Shown here: positions 24,362-33,862 of the stretch, one piece after another | Layout: each line of letters starts with the position of its first letter | Position numbering within the stretch: position 1 is the stretch's first letter | NCBI GenBank assembly: GCA_048938895.1 | Contig: JBHLLU010000043.1 | Coordinates: 1 to 34,183 of the forward strand | Reading direction: 5' to 3' | From: Promethearchaeota archaeon | Lineage (GTDB): Archaea; Asgardarchaeota; Lokiarchaeia; Sigyniarchaeales; SOKP01 | Length of the DNA stretch: 34,183 bases | Notes under the pieces: generated by a model | Told to the model about the DNA's origin: nothing | Database searches by the model: none | The model's input: only the letters and a program-made list of their open reading frames with translations | Program-made: the position numbers and the translations under genes

Positions 24362-24435
24362 GGGAGAGTGGCTTAGCCTGGTATAGCGCACGGCTGATAA
24401 CCGTGAGGTCGGGGGTTCGAAGCCCCCCTTTCCCA
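24362..24435 (+). tRNA. tRNA-Ile(GAT)
   Basis: GGGAGAG...CACGG CTGATAA CCGTG AGGTC GGGGG TTCGAAG CCCCC CTTTCCC A; T-tract follows; no intron. Confidence 0.96.
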
Positions 24436-24512
24436 TTTCTTTTTTTATTTGAGTTAATTTCAATAAGGTTCATTGACTTCATTAAATATAGATCTATCTA
24501 TTAAAATTGCAT

Positions 24513-25109
24513 ATGAAAACTATAATAATTTCTGGAACACCTGGTTGTGGTAAAACCTCTGTTGCGCATGAATTGTCAAATTTAATTCTAGGTAAAATAA
24601 TTTCTTTAAATGAATTGGCTATTTCTGAAAATTTTTCTTTTGACTATGATGAAGATAGAAAAACCGTGATTGTTGATTTTAAAATATTTCTTCCAAATGT
24701 TTTGAAGAAAATTAAAAACCTTAAAAAAAAAAACCCACATCATATCATAATAGAAAGTCATTTTTCTGATGTGATTCCAAATAAATACATTGATTATGCA
24801 TTCATTTTAAGATGCAATCCAGATGAATTAATTAATCGTCTAAAGAAAAAGAATTATAACTCAAAAAAAATAAAAGAAAATATTCAAGCGGAAATATTGG
24901 GAAATTGTACGAATTATTTTATAGAAAAAAATACAAAAAAACCTTTATTCGAAATTGATACATCAAATTTATCAATAGAAGCAGTTGCCAAAATAATTGA
25001 AGAGATTATAAACGGTAAGCAGGAAGGAAAGGAATATAGTATCGGTAAGATCGATTGGCTAGAAAAATTATATCAGGAAGACAGGTTAAAAGAATTTTTT
25101 GATGAATAA
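24513..25109 (+). CDS. Fap7/AK6-type adenylate kinase
   Basis: SGTPGCGKT, IIESH, LRC-x-P, ENIQAEI, EIDT, IDWL. Confidence 0.9.
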   Translation: MKTIIISGTPGCGKTSVAHELSNLILGKIISLNELAISENFSFDYDEDRKTVIVDFKIFLPNVLKKIKNLKKKNPHHIIIESHFSDVIPNKYIDYAFILRCNPDELINRLKKKNYNSKKIKENIQAEILGNCTNYFIEKNTKKPLFEIDTSNLSIEAVAKIIEEIINGKQEGKEYSIGKIDWLEKLYQEDRLKEFFDE

Positions 25110-25133
25110 TAAGTATCAAATTAGGGCAGAATT

Positions 25134-26780
25134 GTGAATTGGGAAATATTAGATACTGATGCTTTAGGACGTATAGGGAAACTATCTATAAATAAGAAGG
25201 AAATGATAACTCCAAATTTATTTCCTGTAGTGCATCCCTATATAAACATTCTTAGTGTGCCAAATATAAAGAAAATTGGTGCTCAATGTGTATTTACGAA
25301 TGCTTATATCATTTATCAAAACCCAGAGATACGGGAATCTGTTTTAAAAAAAGGAATTCATAACTATCTAAAGTTTAATGGAATTATAGCCACAGATAGT
25401 GGTGCTTTTCAAAAATATATGTACAATAAAACCGATATCGACATTAATGCGGAGGTTATCGAACATTTCCAAGAAGATATAGGATCAGATTTTCCTGTAA
25501 TTTTAGATATTCCAGTTCAACCTGATGATGATTATAGGGCTGCTGAAGAAAAGGTTCATTTATCAATACAAAGGGCTAAAGATAATATTAATCGTAGAAG
25601 CAATCACATCTGTCATTGGTTTGGACCAATTCATGGAGGTAAATATTTGGACTTATTGAGAATTAGCACAAAGGAGATGAGTAAACTAGATTTTGATGTG
25701 TTCGCAATAGGGGGATTGGTCAAACATTTATTGGATTATAGATTTGATTTAGTAAGTAAAATTCTCTTAAATGTAAAGAGAGAAATTATCAGTAGTAAAC
25801 CTATTCATATGTTTGGATTAGGTTTACCTCAATTCTTTTCACTTGCGGTAGCATGTGGTTGCGATCTCATGGATTCTGCTGCATATGTACTTTTTGCCAA
25901 AGAAAATAGATATTTTACTTTATCCACAGGGACAAGAAGATTAGAAGAACTTGATGAATTTCCATGCCACTGCCCTATTTGTTGTGAATATGAGCCTAAA
26001 GAAGTAATAAATATGGATGAAAACTTTCGAACTGAAACGTTAGCGAAACATAATTTGTATATTTCCTTTTCAGAATTGAGAACTGTTCGTCAAGCGATCA
26101 AAGAGGGGAATCTATGGGAACTAGTTGAGCAAAGAGTAAGAAACCACCCCGCATTAGTAAAAGCTTTAAAAATGATTAAGTCGGAATTACCATTTTTTGA
26201 GAAGTATGAAAAACTCTATAAATCACATGGGAGACTATATACATCCTTAGAGAGTCTAGAACGTCCTCTATTCTACCGATATGAGCAAAGGATACGTACT
26301 AACTACAGAATACCACAAGAGGTTAAATATTTAGTTTTATTACCAGAATTGGATGTAAAAGGTTTAAAATCACCAAGTATAAAGAAATGGTTGGATGTAA
26401 TTGATGAGAATGTAATTGTTCCCAGAAAATTGCTTCACATCGCATTCATCTCTGACTTTTATGGAACTATTCCTCTTGAATTAACTTCTACTTTCCCTAT
26501 GGGGCAAAATGAGGCTGTTGATATTCTAGAACTCGAAAATGAAGGTTATACAAGACTAGAAAAAAGGATTAATACATATTTTACGTTGTTTGGGCACTAT
26601 TATAAGAAATGTGGAGTATTACTCCCAAACAATTATATTAATCAATTCAATGAGATAACTAGCTACTCAAAAAAAGATATTTATATCAACTTATTTGAGA
26701 ATATCATTTCAGATTTATCATATAATATTTCCATTTTTGATGATTTGGGAGATCTTTTGGAATTCTTTAAACAGGGATGA
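25134..26780 (+). CDS. tgtA: Archaeosine tRNA-guanine(15) transglycosylase
   Basis: TDSGAFQ, HMFGLG, DLMDSAAY, CHCPIC...HN, RQAIKEGNLWELVEQR-x-R-x-HP. Confidence 0.93.
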   Translation: MNWEILDTDALGRIGKLSINKKEMITPNLFPVVHPYINILSVPNIKKIGAQCVFTNAYIIYQNPEIRESVLKKGIHNYLKFNGIIATDSGAFQKYMYNKTDIDINAEVIEHFQEDIGSDFPVILDIPVQPDDDYRAAEEKVHLSIQRAKDNINRRSNHICHWFGPIHGGKYLDLLRISTKEMSKLDFDVFAIGGLVKHLLDYRFDLVSKILLNVKREIISSKPIHMFGLGLPQFFSLAVACGCDLMDSAAYVLFAKENRYFTLSTGTRRLEELDEFPCHCPICCEYEPKEVINMDENFRTETLAKHNLYISFSELRTVRQAIKEGNLWELVEQRVRNHPALVKALKMIKSELPFFEKYEKLYKSHGRLYTSLESLERPLFYRYEQRIRTNYRIPQEVKYLVLLPELDVKGLKSPSIKKWLDVIDENVIVPRKLLHIAFISDFYGTIPLELTSTFPMGQNEAVDILELENEGYTRLEKRINTYFTLFGHYYKKCGVLLPNNYINQFNEITSYSKKDIYINLFENIISDLSYNISIFDDLGDLLEFFKQG

Positions 26781-27205
26781 TTTTGAAAGTTATTGAAAGA
26801 ATATACGCATGGGGTCATGAAAAAATGATGTGTACTCATCGTACTACAATAGAAATTACTAAAGATAAGAATATGTCGAAACAAGGAGATTGTATTATAG
26901 GTGTGAGTGCTTCAAAAGCGTGTGTTGACTTATCTAAAAAGTTAAAAATCCAAATAAAAGACGAGAAAAAGATTAAAGTTATTTTAAAGGTGGATGAGAT
27001 CCAAGATAGTTTCTACGGTTATGGAAATAGAAGATTACAATTACTGGATAGAAATGATATGGTTTTTCGTAAGAGCAACTTTATATGTGAAAGAACTGCC
27101 TTAATCAACTGCTCTAAGTCCTCAATTGAAATAGATAGGGATTTAATTAAGAGTTTAAGAAATTCTAATAAAAAATTATCAATTATTTTTGAAGTGGATG
27201 AATGA
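26777..27205 (+). CDS. DUF371 family protein
   Basis: GH...THRTTIEITKD...GDCIIGV-x-A-x-KA...VFRKS-x-F...RT. Confidence 0.88.
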   Translation: MILKVIERIYAWGHEKMMCTHRTTIEITKDKNMSKQGDCIIGVSASKACVDLSKKLKIQIKDEKKIKVILKVDEIQDSFYGYGNRRLQLLDRNDMVFRKSNFICERTALINCSKSSIEIDRDLIKSLRNSNKKLSIIFEVDE

Positions 27206-28358
27206 TCCAGACCTAAATGATAAGGAAAATGTATTTTTTGTAAAACTAAGGGCCAAAGATGCTCAATATTTTATTCAATTTATAAAAGAAAACTTTGGTA
27301 AAGAAATTATAATTAACCGAAGGTATAAAATTGAGCAAGAAGGAAACTTTAAGCTTTTCCCATTATTAGACAGAAAAGAAATAATTGATAGATTATTTAA
27401 AGAGATACAAAATCACAATCCAGTCGAAATTGTTACCAAAAAACCGATTTTTAATCCAAATTTCAAATTTAAAACCCTTGAGGAAGCGTTACGTGGAAAA
27501 ATCTCTGCTAGTTATATTAATATAATTCCAAAATCCTATGATGTTATCGGAAATATCGCAATCCTCGAGTTTGAGAAACTAGGCGAATTTAATAATAGTG
27601 GATTTAGTAATTTTAAACAACTAGTAGCAAAAGCGGTAATTGAAGTAAATAAAAATGTCTATTCTGTATTTGAGAAAAAAAGTGAAATCAAAGGACCATA
27701 TCGACTAAGAGATTTGGGATTTTTGGTGGGTGAAAATAATACAGAGACTATACATAAGGAAAATGGTTGTACTCTTCACTTAGATATAAAAAAAACATAT
27801 TTTTCACCAAGATTAGTGTTTGAAAGGCAGAGAGTTTCGGAAAGTGATATAAATGAAAAAGAAGTGATTGTAGATATGTTCGCGGGTGTAGGTCCATTTT
27901 CTATACAAATAGCTAAGTTAAATTCGGTTCTCATACATTCCTTTGATGTGAATCCTCATGCTTTTAATTATCTTCAAAAAAATATCAATTCCAATCAACT
28001 GAAGGGAAAAGTTATTGCTTATAATATGAACATCAGAGACCTACTCAAACCATCGAATCAAATTGGAAAAGAATTAAGTGGTTCAGTTGATCGAATAATA
28101 ATGAATTTGCCTGAAAGCTCCATGAATTTTATTGATGTTTTAGTTTATTTGTTGAAAAAATCAGGAGGTTTATTACATTTCTATCATTTCGCAGAAAAAC
28201 CAAACCCAATTGAAAATACATTGACGGATTTGGAAAACAATCTAAATGAATTCAAATGGAAAATAAAGGATATTATTAATTCCAAGATTGTGAAATCATT
28301 TTCTCCTAAGGCAGAGTTAGTTGTACTAGACTTAAGCATTGCGTATTTAAATCCGTAA
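27189..28358 (+). CDS. trm5: Trm5-family tRNA (G37-N1) methyltransferase
   Basis: SYDVIGNIAI, HKENG, YFSPRL-x-FER, DMFAGVGPFSI, DVNP, DRIIMNLP. Confidence 0.88.
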   Translation: MKWMNDPDLNDKENVFFVKLRAKDAQYFIQFIKENFGKEIIINRRYKIEQEGNFKLFPLLDRKEIIDRLFKEIQNHNPVEIVTKKPIFNPNFKFKTLEEALRGKISASYINIIPKSYDVIGNIAILEFEKLGEFNNSGFSNFKQLVAKAVIEVNKNVYSVFEKKSEIKGPYRLRDLGFLVGENNTETIHKENGCTLHLDIKKTYFSPRLVFERQRVSESDINEKEVIVDMFAGVGPFSIQIAKLNSVLIHSFDVNPHAFNYLQKNINSNQLKGKVIAYNMNIRDLLKPSNQIGKELSGSVDRIIMNLPESSMNFIDVLVYLLKKSGGLLHFYHFAEKPNPIENTLTDLENNLNEFKWKIKDIINSKIVKSFSPKAELVVLDLSIAYLNP

Positions 28359-28371
28359 TTTGTCTTTAATT

Positions 28372-31300
28372 CTAGTCCTTAGGTATAAGATTTGGATATA
28401 TTGGCTCAAAATCTTTAGTAAAAAGTTTATGATTCATCCAGATTTTATCTTTTTTGTTCCATTTAAGGTTGAGTAGCGGATTATAACTCCTCAAGAATTC
28501 TAAATCACCATATATGTTTTTAAGCAATGTTTCTCCTTTAACTAAATCTGTTAGAATAAGATAATGCTTTATTTCCAAATATTCAAAGAGAAGATCGAAT
28601 ACATCAAAAAACTCGTCCAATTCGCATTTAGGGAACCAAATTTCGATCATAAAGCCACTTTCGAATGCCCTAGACTTTTCAAAACCATGAAAGTAATATT
28701 CTCCTTCAATTTCATAAATACGGCATATATTAAAAAAACAAAAAATCATAAAAATCTGGTTCTTTTTATCAGTCTCTACATTTGGTAAAATTAAGGTAAC
28801 CTTATCCTGTAAATCTAGATTTTTCATACTAACATACGGGAAAATTAATCCTTTCTTTATAAATGATTCAATAATTTTGATAATGGAATGGTTATTTGTC
28901 CCTAAATAAGATTTAATATCAATAGATCTCCAATTATAAATTTTAGTTAAATCTTTAAATTCAGAAGTCCCTAGACCAAATTCTTCTATAGTAGAAAATT
29001 GCTCTATATTAAATTCTCTTATATCTTGGTCAGGAGTAATATAGTTAGGATTAAATAAGATATTTTGAACATAATTTTTGAATCTGTTTGAAGAGTATTG
29101 CCATCCTGATAAGCTTAAACTATGATTAAAGTGAGTTATTTCGAAAAATTTCTTAATAAAAAAGAAACAATACTCTCTTATTGCTTTTTTCGATTTTAGT
29201 AACCAGTTTAAATATGATTTATTTGGCTTTCTATATGGAAAGAGATATTTAATTAGTATTGGTTGCTCTTGATCAATTTGAGCAGGATACTTAATAGTTT
29301 GAAAACTATTAAGTATAAGTAATTTTAAATCAATATCATCCCAATTATGAGGAAGAAAATACATAAAATATTGAGCGTATCCGAATTTTCTCAATGCTGG
29401 TATAAAATTTATTGAGTTAATATAGGTTGCAAAAAACTTACTTAGTTTTGCATCATTAAATCTGCTTCCATTAATTAGATAAGAATCTAATTGACTTCGG
29501 AATTCAATAAATTGATTTAAAAGCTTTTGGTCAAAAATATTAATTTGACGAGAAACTCTTTTTCTTACATTATTTACTAATTGATTCATACTGCTTTCTA
29601 CTGACCAGAATAGTTTAAAATTCCTATATTTTTTCACATTTTTATGAAATCCCAATTCTTTATCACCTAATAAGTTCTGAGTATAGTTGAAAAATTGTTC
29701 AAATAATTCTTTTGTATGAAAAAACTGTCTCTTTTCAAAATCATAAAAATCTTTAGCTGATATATTAGAAATTCTTATTAAACCCCTCCAGTAGTTCCTT
29801 CGAATAGCAATTAAATTTTCACCAAATAAATTATGAATACTTGTAATAAAATCTCTCTTTTCTTGAATATTTACAGAATAAGGTATAACGTGTATTATAT
29901 TTTCACTTGTATCTTGGTTAATTGCTTCTTGTATGAATAACCTTGGAAAATAGGATTTTAAATTATTAGCTTTCGTTCGAACTTCATTATTTTCCAAAAG
30001 AAAGATTTCAGGATAGAATTTGGCAAATTGACTTGTCATGATTGTATTTAAAAGCATAGGAACTATTACTGGGGGATTATTAAAAAGGAACTTATGAATT
30101 ATAGATTCTATTTTTTCATTTGTGATCTGGTATGATTTAAACGATTTGAATGCTCTTTTATTCATTTCTTCCTTTCTTCTTAGAATCTTCATTAATATTT
30201 TTCGATCTTCAATTATTATTTTTATTGCCTTTAAGCTAAGGATTTTTAGGTTAAAACATGAATTAATTATATCATGATAAAATTTAATTTTCTCAATTTC
30301 TTTTCTATATAACTCACCAGATTTGAAGGATAATGGTAAAATGTCATTAAAAAGGACTTTATGAGCGTATTTATCTCTTAAGATAAGATTTTCTTCTAAT
30401 AAATTAATAGTACCACTTTTTTTTATGTGTAATTCTAATTGATTAATATTATTGAAGTTTAAATTCTCCCCTAAAATCTTTTCAATTGAGACTGAAAGGT
30501 TTAATATAGAACTAATTTTCTCAAGTAGAACGAAAATGCCAAATTTCTGATTTTGCTCAAGGAACTCTAGGAATTCTTTTTTGGTCTGTTTTGATTCAAA
30601 TAATTTAGTGAAATTTTTTTTAAAGCTATTTATATAACCTTGTTGTTTTCGATATTCATTTTCAACTTCTTCTTTAATAGCATTTAAGGTCTCTCTTCTT
30701 TTGTCAAAGGTTAGGCCTGTAACTGAAAAGTTACGTATTCGGAAGAGAATTACGTACTCTAGGATTGAAAGAGGATATATTAAAGGATTAATGGGAAATT
30801 CTGTTAGATGTTCAATTTCATAGTTTTTCCGATAACCTTTGATTGAGGGGTTAACAAATGTTTTGGAATAAATCTCATCTGTAAAATAGTTAAAGTTAAG
30901 AGAATTCTTTACCGTTTTATATAGAAGAAAATTCTTAGAAATTAAATATCCTTTTAGATATAATTTATTTAAATAACTTAGAATATCCTTCAAATATATT
31001 GAGGGTGCATGCAAATTAATAACTATTTTACAGGCAAAACTGTTTTCGATTATTCGAGGATGAGTCATGAAAGGGAAATTTCCCAATAATTTTTTTATTT
31101 TAAATTTTGGTATAATAGGGTTGAAAGTTAACTCACATATAACTGGGGATATCCCGATTGTCGTGTAAACTATATTATAACTAGGTGCTATTGATGTACA
31201 ATTATTAATCCATTGCAAATTTTCATAAAATTTCCTTGAACTCAAGTAAGGTTCAATGGTCTTAGTTTCTTTTAAATGCTTATATAAACCAAGGTAATCA

Positions 31301-32004
31301 GTACTACTTAGATAATTTTTATTTTCATAAAAAATTTTAAGTAGAAATATAATTGTTTTAATTATTTCTTTATTATAAAGAGATTTTGAAGTTTTGGTTG
31401 TATATTTCTCGAAAATTTCATTGTAGTAACTTGAAACGCTACTAACACCCATAACTGTAGCATTTTCATGTATATCCATAAAAAAGAATTGAATTGGTGA
31501 TTCATGAATTTCATGGGATTCCATTTTAAAAAATTTTTTCAATTGATCCAATTGTGATATTAAGAAATCTCGATCAACTATAACGTCTCTAATCAGATTA
31601 TGCCATTTTTTGAATCCAGAAGCTTTCTCGAGTTCATTTTCAACAATTTGATTAATAAATATTTTTATAGTTTTATTGTTTTTTATTTCAGTGGGGATAA
31701 AACAATATAATGCTTCACGAAGAAATATAAAGGGCAGATAAAACTTTTCCATTTCATAGATATTTATAATAAGAACATCTTTGTTATATAATCGATTAAC
31801 TCCCCAATCAAGAATTGAATTTTTAATTTTGTTCTCATCCATTTTATTTGATAGCAGGTTGAAAACAATTTTTTTGTTAATTGGTTTTAATCTTAAATAA
31901 TCACTAATATCAGATATTAAAAATTCTAAGATATTTTGAATTTGATTAGTAAATTCTCCTTTTGACAGCTTAATTATCATGTTAGAATCTATTATGTTAG
32001 GCAT
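28372..32004 (-). CDS. Very large (1210 aa) hypothetical protein with repeated Lrp/AsnC-like modules
   Basis: Long ORF; recurring linker/ferredoxin-like patterns (IAPSYNIVYTTIG, INFIPALRKFG, KKGLIFPYVSMKNLDL); N-terminal LPFIFLREA helix. The domain call is tentative. Confidence 0.8.
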   Translation of the reverse strand: MPNIIDSNMIIKLSKGEFTNQIQNILEFLISDISDYLRLKPINKKIVFNLLSNKMDENKIKNSILDWGVNRLYNKDVLIINIYEMEKFYLPFIFLREALYCFIPTEIKNNKTIKIFINQIVENELEKASGFKKWHNLIRDVIVDRDFLISQLDQLKKFFKMESHEIHESPIQFFFMDIHENATVMGVSSVSSYYNEIFEKYTTKTSKSLYNKEIIKTIIFLLKIFYENKNYLSSTDYLGLYKHLKETKTIEPYLSSRKFYENLQWINNCTSIAPSYNIVYTTIGISPVICELTFNPIIPKFKIKKLLGNFPFMTHPRIIENSFACKIVINLHAPSIYLKDILSYLNKLYLKGYLISKNFLLYKTVKNSLNFNYFTDEIYSKTFVNPSIKGYRKNYEIEHLTEFPINPLIYPLSILEYVILFRIRNFSVTGLTFDKRRETLNAIKEEVENEYRKQQGYINSFKKNFTKLFESKQTKKEFLEFLEQNQKFGIFVLLEKISSILNLSVSIEKILGENLNFNNINQLELHIKKSGTINLLEENLILRDKYAHKVLFNDILPLSFKSGELYRKEIEKIKFYHDIINSCFNLKILSLKAIKIIIEDRKILMKILRRKEEMNKRAFKSFKSYQITNEKIESIIHKFLFNNPPVIVPMLLNTIMTSQFAKFYPEIFLLENNEVRTKANNLKSYFPRLFIQEAINQDTSENIIHVIPYSVNIQEKRDFITSIHNLFGENLIAIRRNYWRGLIRISNISAKDFYDFEKRQFFHTKELFEQFFNYTQNLLGDKELGFHKNVKKYRNFKLFWSVESSMNQLVNNVRKRVSRQINIFDQKLLNQFIEFRSQLDSYLINGSRFNDAKLSKFFATYINSINFIPALRKFGYAQYFMYFLPHNWDDIDLKLLILNSFQTIKYPAQIDQEQPILIKYLFPYRKPNKSYLNWLLKSKKAIREYCFFFIKKFFEITHFNHSLSLSGWQYSSNRFKNYVQNILFNPNYITPDQDIREFNIEQFSTIEEFGLGTSEFKDLTKIYNWRSIDIKSYLGTNNHSIIKIIESFIKKGLIFPYVSMKNLDLQDKVTLILPNVETDKKNQIFMIFCFFNICRIYEIEGEYYFHGFEKSRAFESGFMIEIWFPKCELDEFFDVFDLLFEYLEIKHYLILTDLVKGETLLKNIYGDLEFLRSYNPLLNLKWNKKDKIWMNHKLFTKDFEPIYPNLIPKD

Positions 32005-32161
32005 GAGTGATAAAATGCATTATTTTTGACTAAAATTAGAAGATCATATATCTTTTGAATAATCAAGCCATATATTTATATTTTTACTTCAGAATTATAT
32101 CTTAATGAAGGTTATTGCCGCCTTTTTAAAAAGAAATTAGAGAGGAATTCATAAAGAATTC

Positions 32162-32200
32162 TCATAAATCTTCAGGCATGACTTCTCCACCGTGTGGCAT
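32162..32200 (-). CDS. Micro-ORF copy A, MPHGGEVMPEDL
   Basis: ATG CCA CAC GGT GGA GAA GTC ATG CCT GAA GAT TTA TGA; TTTATATA 20-27 nt upstream suggests a leaderless transcript. Confidence 0.65.
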   Translation of the reverse strand: MPHGGEVMPEDL

Positions 32201-32367
32201 GTAAATTTATTTAATTTGATATATAAAAAATACACAAAAATTCTATATCCCAGATTCAAGCTTATATTTTTTTAATTCAAGACAAGAAATTTTTTCTTGG
32301 AGTTTATATATAAATTAAAAGAATATATTTAACATCCCATTAAAAAAGGGGATGGGGGTTAAAAGTA

Positions 32368-32397
32368 ATGCCACGAGCAGGTGAAACTCTTCTTTAA
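32368..32397 (+). CDS. Micro-ORF copy B, MPRAGETLL
   Basis: ATG CCA CGA GCA GGT GAA ACT CTT CTT TAA; G-rich SD-like GGGGGT upstream. Confidence 0.6.
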   Translation: MPRAGETLL

Positions 32398-32538
32398 ATG
32401 GTTAGTAGAATCCATCATGGATTCCTACTCTATACTTCTTAGACTTATTTGAATCGTGAAATATTGACATTCGTGGAATTTATAATTTTGTAGAATAGGA
32501 TCAATTCCTAATAAAATATTGGTTGGCGGTTAAATATT

Positions 32539-32568
32539 ATGCCACATGGAGGAGAAGTCTGCCCTTAA
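32539..32568 (+). CDS. Micro-ORF copy C, MPHGGEVCP
   Basis: ATG CCA CAT GGA GGA GAA GTC TGC CCT TAA; GGCGGT SD-like upstream. Confidence 0.65.
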   Translation: MPHGGEVCP

Positions 32569-32632
32569 ATGATTATTAGAATCCAATACGGATTCATACT
32601 CTATAGTTTCCTTAAAAAATTTTTTTATGGAT

Positions 32633-33862
32633 TTAATATTTGATATAAATCAATGGAATTATTGAAAGATTCAACAAAAATGCACCCAAAATGATTAAGA
32701 TTTCAGTCATGAAAAAACTAGACAACATGGTGCCTAAAGGAATAAAAAAGAACAAACTCAAATTCTTAAATGTAGCGATAACATGAAAATACAGTGATTT
32801 ATTTCCTTTTTTAAAATTCATCACGAGGATTGATATATTAAAATTTATTATAATCGCAAAAGATGACCCAATGAAATATAGGAAAACAAAAATCGTAAAT
32901 GGTACAATTGTATACAATATATATGCAAGTCCCACTATTGGCATGAGAACAAAAATGAGTTTCTTTGATTTTATTCTTTTTATTAGAAATGCCGCTATAC
33001 CAGAGCTCATTATGCTTAAAAGGAAGTAAAAAATAAGAAAAAGATTAAAAATTTTAAAATTATTGATTCCAAATTTTCCTAATAACCATGGAAAGAAAGG
33101 GTAAGTAAATATTGCGTCACTAAATGCAAAAAATGTAAATATACATAATAAAATATAGACAGTTTTTAGGTTTTTATATAATATTTCGTTTTCAGATTCA
33201 ATCAAATTAGTACAAACTGGATGAGCTATTTGTGAATTTGACTTAGAACGACCATTTTCATTAATAAATGGTAAAAAAACCAGAAGAGGAAATAAAAACA
33301 TATAACTAAAAATGAAAAAAGTCATCCAAGAAGTAATAGAATACACGTCACTAATCAATGTAGAATATAATAGAAAAGGGAAGAATCTACCCAATGCATC
33401 GCCGCATAAAACAAAGAAAAAAGCTTTTTTCTTAACATCATCAGTAGGAGAGATATCTAGAATAAGAGATTTTGTAGAGACATCTAACATAGTGCCGGAT
33501 AAGAATACTAATAGTAATAGGACTCCAAATATAATCATATTCTGATAGGTTAACCCCATTAACATATATATCAGAGCCAATATATATCCTGAAAAGATAA
33601 TATAATATTTTCGTTGATACCCATTGAGTTTATATCTATCCGTTATCGAAGCAAAAACAGGACGTAGTAATATAACGGAATATGCTAAAAATTGAATGAA
33701 TGCAAGAATAATTCGGTTAATATTTAATACATCAAAAAATAGGATTGGAAAATAGCTATTTAGAAAGACAAAAACCGAAGAATACACTAAATAAATAAAT
33801 ACAAATGAAATGTGGTTTACATTAAAATAAGATTTAGTTCCTAACTTCTTTAGTTTTAACAT
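32633..33862 (-). CDS. MFS transporter (BT1/AmpG-like)
   Basis: About 12 TM helices; RPVFASITDRY...RKYY motif; DVST-x-SL-x-LD in TM4. Confidence 0.82.
   Translation of the reverse strand: MLKLKKLGTKSYFNVNHISFVFIYLVYSSVFVFLNSYFPILFFDVLNINRIILAFIQFLAYSVILLRPVFASITDRYKLNGYQRKYYIIFSGYILALIYMLMGLTYQNMIIFGVLLLLVFLSGTMLDVSTKSLILDISPTDDVKKKAFFFVLCGDALGRFFPFLLYSTLISDVYSITSWMTFFIFSYMFLFPLLVFLPFINENGRSKSNSQIAHPVCTNLIESENEILYKNLKTVYILLCIFTFFAFSDAIFTYPFFPWLLGKFGINNFKIFNLFLIFYFLLSIMSSGIAAFLIKRIKSKKLIFVLMPIVGLAYILYTIVPFTIFVFLYFIGSSFAIIINFNISILVMNFKKGNKSLYFHVIATFKNLSLFFFIPLGTMLSSFFMTEILIILGAFLLNLSIIPLIYIKY

Follow-up and report, generated by a model that had tools for sequence, protein, structure and literature searches.

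Conserved micro-ORFs beside a 1210-residue protein gene and a transporter gene in Loki-type Asgard archaea: candidates for a peptide-based control system

The window analysed here is a stretch of 34,183 nucleotides (contig JBHLLU010000043.1, forward strand) from a Promethearchaeota archaeon, which carries three paralogous micro open reading frames (ORFs) of 9-12 codons, referred to as copies A, B and C. They lie between the gene of a 1210-residue lineage-specific protein, here called BIG, and that of a major facilitator superfamily (MFS) transporter. An original prediction made from the sequence of the window had placed the three paralogues in a '630-bp' intergenic region; their positions and translations proved exact, and the region, the spacer between BIG and the MFS gene, has a measured length of 628 bp. 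The TATA box that it assigned to copy A, at leaderless spacing, and the Shine-Dalgarno (SD)-like sequences that it assigned to copies B and C are likewise found, whereas the hairpin that follows each ORF and resembles a terminator, the leader of B and C and the cassette formed with the neighbouring genes had escaped it. The features of the locus are as follows.

28372-32004, minus strand: gene of BIG, the 1210-residue lineage-specific protein, divergent from copies B and C
32005-32632: intergenic region of 628 bp between the BIG ORF and the MFS gene
32142-32163, minus strand: hairpin of copy A (GAGAATTC / GAATTCCTC), with a T-rich tail at 32128-32141, reading towards the gene of the 1210-residue protein
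32200-32162, minus strand: copy A micro-ORF, MPHGGEVMPEDL, 12 codons and TGA, with an in-frame stop 9 nt upstream
32219-32230, minus strand: TATA-like box of copy A (TTTTTTATATAT), ending 18 nt before the ATG, a leaderless spacing
32303-32314, plus strand: TATA box of copy B (TTTATATATAAA), about 30 nt upstream of where the leader is predicted to begin
32333-32367, plus strand: leader of copy B, with a hairpin CATCCC...GGGATG (32333-32354) and the SD-like GGGGGT (32354-32359)
32368-32397, plus strand: copy B micro-ORF, MPRAGETLL, 9 codons and TAA, with an in-frame stop 27 nt upstream
32405-32428, plus strand: hairpin of copy B (GTAGAATCC / GGATTCCTAC), with a tail to 32440; dG -11.6, z -3.6
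32479-32489, plus strand: TATA box of copy C (TTTATAATTTT)
32507-32538, plus strand: leader of copy C, with a weak SD-like GGCGGT (32525-32530)
32539-32568, plus strand: copy C micro-ORF, MPHGGEVCP, 9 codons and TAA
32577-32598, plus strand: hairpin of copy C (TAGAATCC / GGATTCATA), with a T-rich tail at 32599-32626 that includes a run of seven T; it faces the 3' end of the MFS gene
32633-33862, minus strand: gene of a 409-residue MFS transporter (MFS_1, weak BT1), convergent with copy C

The three copies are closely related. As had been predicted, the first seven codons of A and C differ only by CAC/CAT and GGT/GGA, both of which are synonymous, and copy B retains M, P, G and E, with GGT at Gly5. 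The pattern ATGCCN-N6-GGNGAR occurs seven times on both strands of the 4.65-Mb genome (31% GC), compared with 2.7 occurrences expected from its base composition, and three of the seven fall within these 407 bp; an nhmmer search with the three units as query finds just these three copies in the genome (E 6e-22 to 9e-17; the next match has E 6.1). Their clustering by chance is thus excluded, and two of the other pattern matches (on C44 and C152) lack both promoter and hairpin. Copies B and C form a 103-nt direct repeat (32335-32437 and 32506-32608) of 73% identity which begins about 33 nt before the ATG, and the similarity among the copies runs for about 70 nt, some 40 nt beyond the stop codons, into the hairpin and its T-rich tail. 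A dispersed repeat or miniature inverted-repeat transposable element is ruled out because the genome holds three copies only. Searches of the region with Rfam (E up to 10) returned two chance-level matches (E 1.4 and 1.9), far below the gathering threshold, and ARAGORN found no tRNA or tmRNA in it. A second ORF across the hairpin, starting at TAAATG or TAATTG (for example MVSRIHHGFLLYTS in copy B), was rejected since its start is absent in several homologues and its frame relative to the hairpin differs, and the idea of a metal-binding peptide with His at position 3 was dropped because this position is variable.

In a relative, G013, a single unit adjoins a homologue of the 1210-residue protein. 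When the N-terminal 400 residues of BIG serve as the anchor, 43 of the 54 genomes of the genus have a match, often with two to four paralogues, and all 12 other genomes with a BIG at least 40% identical (13 of 13 with the window) carry one to three units on the opposite strand, 97-500 nt from the start of BIG. A covariance model (R1) built from 18 units (alignment A3) gives matches in 20 of the genus's 54 genomes. In a sample of 151 genomes from the order it matches 33, all of which belong to one Promethearchaeota (Loki-type) family: 19 of 52 genomes of genus g1 plus the window's own genome, and 13 of 42 genomes of genus g14. The other 22 genera searched in the order sample yielded no match. 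Two matches of the model look spurious, namely G041:C44 and G010:C317, the latter within a coding tail rich in Gly, Pro and Met; these and the weak match in G122 are left out of the tabulated set, which comprises 39 units from 30 genomes of the two genera. A further sample consists of metagenome loci picked solely by their BIG homology, 29 in all, of which 28 were analysed (L151 is too short). Among the 23 loci whose BIG shows 40% identity or more and is preceded by 300 nt or more of DNA, several of which are duplicates across samples, 18 contain a unit of the M-P-x-x-G-E class, one contains a related class and four contain none. Weak model matches are also seen at the 3' end of a more distant large gene in L145 (6150-6233) and L146 (6104-6191), with a longer frame (MAAAGVSIPGCGESTP in L145) and a core of I-P-x-x-G-E-x-x-P.

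Upstream of the ATG the units follow two main layouts. In class I (11 units including copy A) a block with a B recognition element (BRE) and TATA box, gttcACTTTAAAAAT, ends 18-22 nt before the ATG; the spacing in copy A equals that of class I units elsewhere and lies near the position at which TATA-like 8-mers peak before long ORFs of the window's genome (-31 to -29). In class II (26 units including copies B and C) this promoter block is located about 60 nt upstream and a leader of 32-38 nt is inserted, which usually starts with TACC or TACT and contains a hairpin as well as, 8-9 nt before the ATG, GGAGGT or, in a subgroup of g14, GGTGA. The upstream region of unit G068b combines the class I promoter of G020, almost base for base, with a class II-type leader. 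The divergence of copy A from the other two copies upstream of the ATG is explained if A is, as had been predicted, the leaderless version of one gene. Since SD-like 5-mers peak at -15 to -11 before long ORFs in the window's genome, and the TATA-like peak also agrees, both classes fit the organism's own signals. Transcription is predicted to start at the ATG itself in copy A and about 32-35 nt before it in copies B and C. Class II leaders, including those at 32333-32367 and 32507-32538 of the window, can fold into a hairpin at their 5' end; a small hairpin in which the 3' part of the SD sequence (GG[U/C]AU) pairs with the start region AUGCC is also possible, and this pairing may act as a translational gate.

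Beyond the stop codon the repeat consists of TAGAATCC, a 5-nt loop and GGATTC, followed by CTCTA(A/T) and a T-rich tract. Over the tabulated units this hairpin has a median dG of -8.1 kcal/mol and precedes T-runs, and it is more stable than shuffled sequences at z < -2 in 23 of 39 units. The six core pairs persist; two of them show compensatory C:G to U:A changes and a G:U wobble also occurs. The GAATTC/GAATTC stem of copy A is such a C:G to U:A change relative to B and C. Both sides have changed in five of nine pairs, and four of 500 shuffles attain the covariation score. The stems of G063, G012 and G066 are wholly different in sequence, six g14 units (L084-L088 and L090) keep the stem TTAGAATCC/GGATTCTAA with a loop insert of about 45 nt, and in five g14 units the GAATCC hairpin is absent and only T-runs are present, with the frame retained. 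A scan for promoters and terminators of the bacterial type reported no terminator-like site, a result that is uninformative for an archaeon given its bacterial model.

The comparison of units suggests that the micro-ORFs are translated. A start codon is present in 38 of the 39 units (ATG in 37, GTG in one), the ORF has 8 codons in nine units, 9 in 27, 11 in one and 12 in two, and it ends with TAA (33), TAG (five) or TGA (one). The core M-P-x-x-G-[ED] is kept, with drift confined to positions other than the fixed Met, Pro, Gly and Glu/Asp, and its conserved codons vary at third positions only (CC[AT], GG[ATG], GA[AGC]). In most units in-frame stops are located 3-27 nt upstream, so the frames cannot be much longer. 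The G-[ED] codons lie 9, 12 or 15 nt from the ATG, the indels being multiples of three. That one and the same ATG is served by leaderless and SD-led versions under a common promoter argues for translation. The ORF also outlasts the hairpin: G128 encodes MPHGGEVIP, compared with MPHGGEVCP here, with synonymous differences. Conserved nucleotides with a lost ATG, which the original prediction had named as the sign of an RNA or DNA motif, were encountered once in form, in L126/L127, where the canonical ATG has become ATT; there the frame remains open from an in-frame ATG three codons upstream (MIEIPRGGETVP). In L145 the same ATT change is accompanied by an in-frame ATG seven codons upstream, again with an open frame. 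The codon-position substitution test that had been suggested, here as Nei-Gojobori pN/pS over 29 unique 9-codon ORFs, gives its lowest value in the ORF frame, 0.81 (bootstrap 5-95%: 0.70-0.94), compared with 0.95 and 1.03 in the other two, with 265 of 300 bootstraps also placing the ORF frame lowest; the effect is modest. The predicted short peptides with a constant N-terminus and variable tail gain partial comparative support from 38 of 39 units and 18 of 23 metagenome loci, their translation being read from conservation.

The units are embedded in a recurrent gene neighbourhood. The usual order in g1, as seen in the window and in G004, G048, G047, G060 and G068, is a convergent MFS gene, one or more units and a divergent BIG gene; orthologous MFS transporters (58-78% identity) are located beside a unit in 13 g1 loci, and a distant MFS lies beside divergent units. 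In g14 the order is a divergent BIG gene, the unit and then a co-directional gene for a distant MFS, with a conserved BRE/TATA of its own in the stretch that separates the unit from the MFS ATG. In L083-L088 a conserved promoter-like AATGAGTTT(T/A)TAAAT is found 30-90 nt past the unit, ahead of the co-directional MFS. The synteny shows that units, BIG and MFS form a cassette. In G015, G020, G016, G014 and G002 a gene for a B12-binding radical S-adenosylmethionine (SAM) protein of about 547 residues is inserted between unit and MFS on the unit's strand (5914-7557 in L067 and 9009-10640 in L068, with orthologues in L066, L077 and L078; mutually 56-73% identical). The window's genome lacks an orthologue, its best matches being 24-27% identical and located elsewhere, and the NCBIfam matches of these radical SAM proteins, which include RiPP (ribosomally synthesised and post-translationally modified peptide) and lipid enzymes, are all far below the cut-off. 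The next gene encodes CdhD in G013, G061 and G069, and in G066:C607 the unit sits after the 3' end of a BIG gene. The neighbours are BIG, MFS, TGT, DUF371, Trm5/TYW2, radical SAM or CdhD proteins, and no domain of the RRE, YcaO, LanM or MccB type was found among unit neighbours. A soluble protein of 398-424 residues with a HEGYPGHH motif, which has no Pfam match at E 0.001, is encoded convergently to the unit in the second type of g14 neighbourhood, in L095 (7856-9052, minus strand) and L096 (7659-8933, minus strand).

BIG itself has no sequence match in Pfam, NCBIfam or PDB; no Pfam family reaches a significant E in 13 members, and HTH_AsnC and AsnC_trans_reg, the domains of Lrp/AsnC regulators, are not matched at the sequence level either. 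At least 235 relatives exist; the named ones, which bear Promethearchaeota, Loki-, Thor-, Hermod- and Hodarchaeota labels, are all annotated as 'hypothetical protein'. Structural comparison gives a lead. In a Foldseek search with the AlphaFold model of residues 1-420 (mean predicted local distance difference test, pLDDT, 62.5) the top matches are Lrp/AsnC regulators (best E 8e-4, probability 1.0), and VIA-align identifies a ferredoxin-like (RAM/ACT/S6-type) domain at residues 277-370 as well as full-length Lrp/AsnC alignments over residues 208-370 (Z 8.5-9.1) with a root-mean-square deviation (rmsd) of about 9 Å. The Atlas lead for BIG is a cluster of multi-HTH_AsnC proteins (score 0.82). These models give moderate support to an Lrp/AsnC-like helical plus RAM/ACT-type module at about residues 208-370, to be taken as a lead to the fold and not as family membership. 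For the C-terminal 411 residues the AlphaFold model is poor (pLDDT 48) and all Foldseek matches lie above E 0.04.

Other clades of BIG paralogues have divergent micro-ORF classes of their own, several of them with hairpin and T-run. These classes are M-[YNIL]-F-x-G-E-T-[VI]-P (MYFGGETVP, MNFQGETVP), M-F-x-(x)-G-D-G-..-P (MFRGDGGGVP, MFHGDGDLSP), M-x-L-G-...-G-G-G-P (MALGWEGSGGGP, MLGWKGDGGGP), M-P-...-G-E-P-P-x-K (MPGSFGEPPTK, MPYGIGEPPAK) and M-S-G-[DE]-...-[LI]-N (MSGDSEEVGLLN); the loci concerned are L026, L029, L030, L035, L038, L024, L025, L032 and L033, L104, L107, L115 and L121, and L037. Two classes occur beside two BIG paralogues in G069, G047 and G042. In a maximum-likelihood tree of 34 BIG N-termini, on which the class labels were set by the analyst, the 17 BIGs with the M-P-x-x-G-E class form a single clade (support 100/100) in which g1 and g14 are interleaved, and two other peptide classes correspond to one clade each (98/97 and 100/100). 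In the M-P clade, tails end in Pro or Leu in the five closest relatives, the window included, and are Gly-rich in the other subclade. Peptide class thus appears to track BIG clade, which fits a functional pairing of the two.

The reading that is favoured, with slightly better than even confidence, is that the units are free-standing translated micro-genes whose peptides act with BIG and the MFS transporter as a peptide-plus-regulator circuit. Copies A, B and C would be paralogous mini-genes of about 75-110 nt, each with its own archaeal BRE/TATA promoter; the 9-12-codon frame M-P-x-x-G-E-x-x-x would be translated and the peptide would be the conserved product, and the 6-10-bp hairpin with its T-rich tract would end, and probably stabilise, the short transcript. 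The peptide, made at its final size, would serve as a small ligand which the MFS transporter moves across the membrane and/or which the giant Lrp-like protein senses, and BIG would in turn control the promoters in the shared intergenic region. Where the original prediction had offered signalling peptides, RiPP-like precursors and regulatory leaders side by side, the BIG and MFS context favours a free-standing peptide gene over a leader, without settling the matter. A bolder extension is a peptide language of Loki-type Asgard archaea, in which ready-made peptides carried by MFS transporters and read by giant Lrp-like proteins form paralogue-specific classes (M-P-x-x-G-E..., M-x-F-x-G-E-T-V-P, M-F-x-G-D-G-..P and others) in a quorum-sensing-like or self-sensing system unrelated to RRNPP parts; this is speculative and judged rather unlikely.

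Several observations weigh against the circuit. MFS is convergent in g1 and co-directional in g14, and the two transporters are only 26-30% identical; G002, which is 100% complete, carries an intact and a decayed unit (L068 8596-8871) with radical SAM and MFS genes but without a BIG match; and in G023 (L069 7886-7981) an intact unit lies beside a 32-residue C-terminal remnant of BIG. In the g14 genomes G126 and G151 the unit is found between a glycosyltransferase gene and that of a convergent HExxxxHH protein with neither BIG nor MFS nearby, and parts of this neighbourhood are also seen in G128, G125 and G123, whose loci reach or approach contig ends, the G123 unit touching the end of its locus. 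Units also decay. A second copy at some distance from the large gene, about 2 kb away and intact in L136 (372-455, MPPAGEGSS), is frameshifted in L134 (238-318), and in L135 (397-470) the ORF of the distant copy has been deleted and the hairpin is intact, a pattern that looks like birth-and-death turnover; the decayed copy in G002 has an ATA start and a broken hairpin. As for the coding signal, the substitution test is weakened by five of the eight codons, which can change almost freely, CCN..GGNGAR could be an SD-resembling nucleotide motif instead of codons, and the stem sequence of the hairpin is conserved beyond what termination needs. The Lrp-likeness of BIG depends on a model with a mean pLDDT of 62.5, the rmsd of the full-length Lrp alignments is about 9 Å, and the compact match, at residues 277-370, is a common ferredoxin-like fold. 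Finally, the tracking of peptide class by BIG clade is no proof of interaction because adjacent genes are co-inherited.

The stop codon is located 0-12 nt from the hairpin, so that a terminating ribosome would cover its 5' arm, and this is what would be expected of a cis-acting leader peptide, an attenuator in which translation of the micro-ORF sets termination at the hairpin and T-run and hence read-through into the next gene, be it BIG for copy A or radical SAM, CdhD or MFS genes in other genomes. Leaderless short ORFs are described as working in this way in mycobacteria in the available text of 10.1101/834739. About half of the g1 loci have a gene on the unit's strand within some 60-320 nt downstream (BIG after copy A; radical SAM in G015, G020, G016, G014 and G002; CdhD in G013, G061 and G069; MFS in G012:C90), and all six g14 loci of the BIG type that were inspected likewise have a co-directional gene after the unit. 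The same count, however, leaves about ten g1 loci with such a gene and about ten without: copies B and C, the units of G004, G048, G047, G060, G068, G023, G063 and G066 and the third copy of G020 face a convergent gene or unit, as do G126 and G151 a convergent gene, and the core is conserved even where there is nothing to regulate in cis. The downstream genes are mutually unrelated, the g14 MFS has its own BRE/TATA, and every unit of a tandem array has its own promoter. None of the tabulated ORFs contains a run of one sensed amino acid, and no conserved antiterminator pairing is seen in the folds made, which did not include a search aimed at such pairing. An attenuator is therefore judged unlikely, if the foremost of the alternatives to be kept in mind.

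Conservation of the RNA structure raises another alternative, namely that a transcript of about 70 nt or its hairpin is the functional element, as a small RNA or as an RNA or DNA element bound by protein, for example by the ferredoxin-like domains of BIG, and that the open frame is the by-product of a purine-rich motif (GGAGAA). The compensatory changes and G:U wobble of the hairpin, with five of nine pairs changed on both sides, its wholly different stems in three genomes, the conservation of the stem TAGAATCC/GGATTCTA beyond the needs of a terminator, the SD-like character of GGNGAR, a pN/pS modestly below 1 and the hairpin of L135 that is kept without an ORF can all be read in this way. An SD sequence at the genome's preferred distance, or a leaderless ATG, would be purposeless in such an RNA, however, and the ORF persists without the hairpin, an upstream ATG restores the frame where the canonical one is lost, and the indels before G-[ED] come in multiples of three. 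Codons 3, 4 and 7-9 vary even between tandem copies, unlike a pairing seed, and Rfam offers no match other than two with E > 1, which makes a non-coding element quite improbable. About equally doubtful is a RiPP-like precursor, in which the peptide would be methylated or otherwise tailored by the B12 radical SAM protein and/or BIG and exported by MFS, in a layout comparable to that of mccA. The radical SAM gene directly downstream on the same strand in five genomes, the adjacent MFS, the tandem copies with variable tails and the succession of tiny ORF, hairpin or terminator and later genes, which resembles mccA as presented in the accessible part of PMC4231749, would suit it. Against this, the radical SAM gene is beside units in just five of 30 genomes, has no orthologue in the window's genome and matches NCBIfam only far below cut-off; peptides of 8-12 residues show no division into leader and core; the neighbours include no RRE, YcaO, LanM or MccB-type domain; and a C-terminal Asn occurs in one of the 38 tabulated ORFs that keep a start codon. 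A recent local duplication with chance ORFs in an AT-rich spacer, and thus no function at all, is hardly credible: 9-codon open frames are common at 31% GC and some copies are clearly decaying, but the unit is conserved in two genera in which the neighbouring BIG is only 40-57% identical, and promoter, start, stop and terminator are all kept.

Parts of the circuit recall known systems. Lrp/AsnC (feast/famine) regulators bind small ligands at their RAM domain, and divergent transcription from a transporter locus is common for regulators of this type. Like them, BIG models in its N-terminal third as a helical segment plus a beta-alpha-beta-beta-alpha-beta domain and is divergent from a locus that contains a transporter; unlike them, it is eight times longer and has no sequence-level match, and its ligand would be a peptide and not an amino acid. 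In the microcin C system MccC is an MFS-type exporter which is encoded later in the cluster. The first gene of that operon, mccA, belongs to the shortest genes known, and a terminator hairpin directly after the ORF gives rise to an abundant short transcript, as described in the accessible part of PMC4231749. The micro-ORFs share the very short frame followed by hairpin and T-rich tract, termination being read here from sequence, and differ from mccA as it appears there in that no MccB (ThiF/E1-like) adenylyltransferase gene is found near the units, no C-terminal Asn is conserved (1 of 38), the units are mostly not the first genes of an operon, and promoter and termination signals are archaeal. 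In the mycobacterial attenuators, according to the available text of 10.1101/834739, the sensed amino acid occurs in runs and the regulated operon always comes downstream; they are similar in that a leaderless transcript opens with a short ORF and an RNA structure comes right after it, and different in that the units here have an M-P-x-x-G-E core and, in about half of the cases, lack a co-directional gene. Leaderless communication peptides (LCPs) with receptors of the RopB clan (RRNPP-type) in Firmicutes are encoded by very short genes without a secretion leader beside the gene of a cytoplasmic regulator (PMC10518010, as far as its available text goes). The likeness to that description lies in a peptide encoded at its mature size (8-12 codons here) without a secretion leader, next to a regulator-like gene, and in many peptide 'codes' that pair with clades of the receptor, which here is putative. 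The difference from it is that the candidate receptor is a 1,210-residue protein with Lrp/AsnC-like fold matches and not a tetratricopeptide repeat protein of the RRNPP family, that the host is an archaeon, that an MFS is present and no Opp-type importer is seen in the locus, and that the peptides are hydrophilic and acidic. With no RRNPP receptor, neither MccB nor a terminal Asn, and no constant downstream gene, the units are not assigned to any of these three groups. No description of the cassette was found in the open-access text of the literature, supplements apart, or in the accessible part of an archaeal RiPP survey, and the cassette looks like an undescribed peptide-based control or signalling system.

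If the peptides are made, their genes would be among the shortest of any archaeon and invisible to gene callers. The micro-genes are conserved alongside a large, paralogous and wholly uncharacterised protein family of the archaea closest to eukaryotes, and the favoured circuit, if true, would make the cassette the first candidate in Asgard archaea for regulation by peptides or for signalling between cells, and would also give a first functional handle on this family of 1,200-residue proteins. On the far side of BIG, positions 24362-28358 of the window hold a tRNA-Ile (GAT) gene followed by genes for AAA_18, a 548-residue TGT (archaeosine-type), DUF371 and Trm5/TYW2 proteins, and this tRNA-modification block is syntenic in G002.

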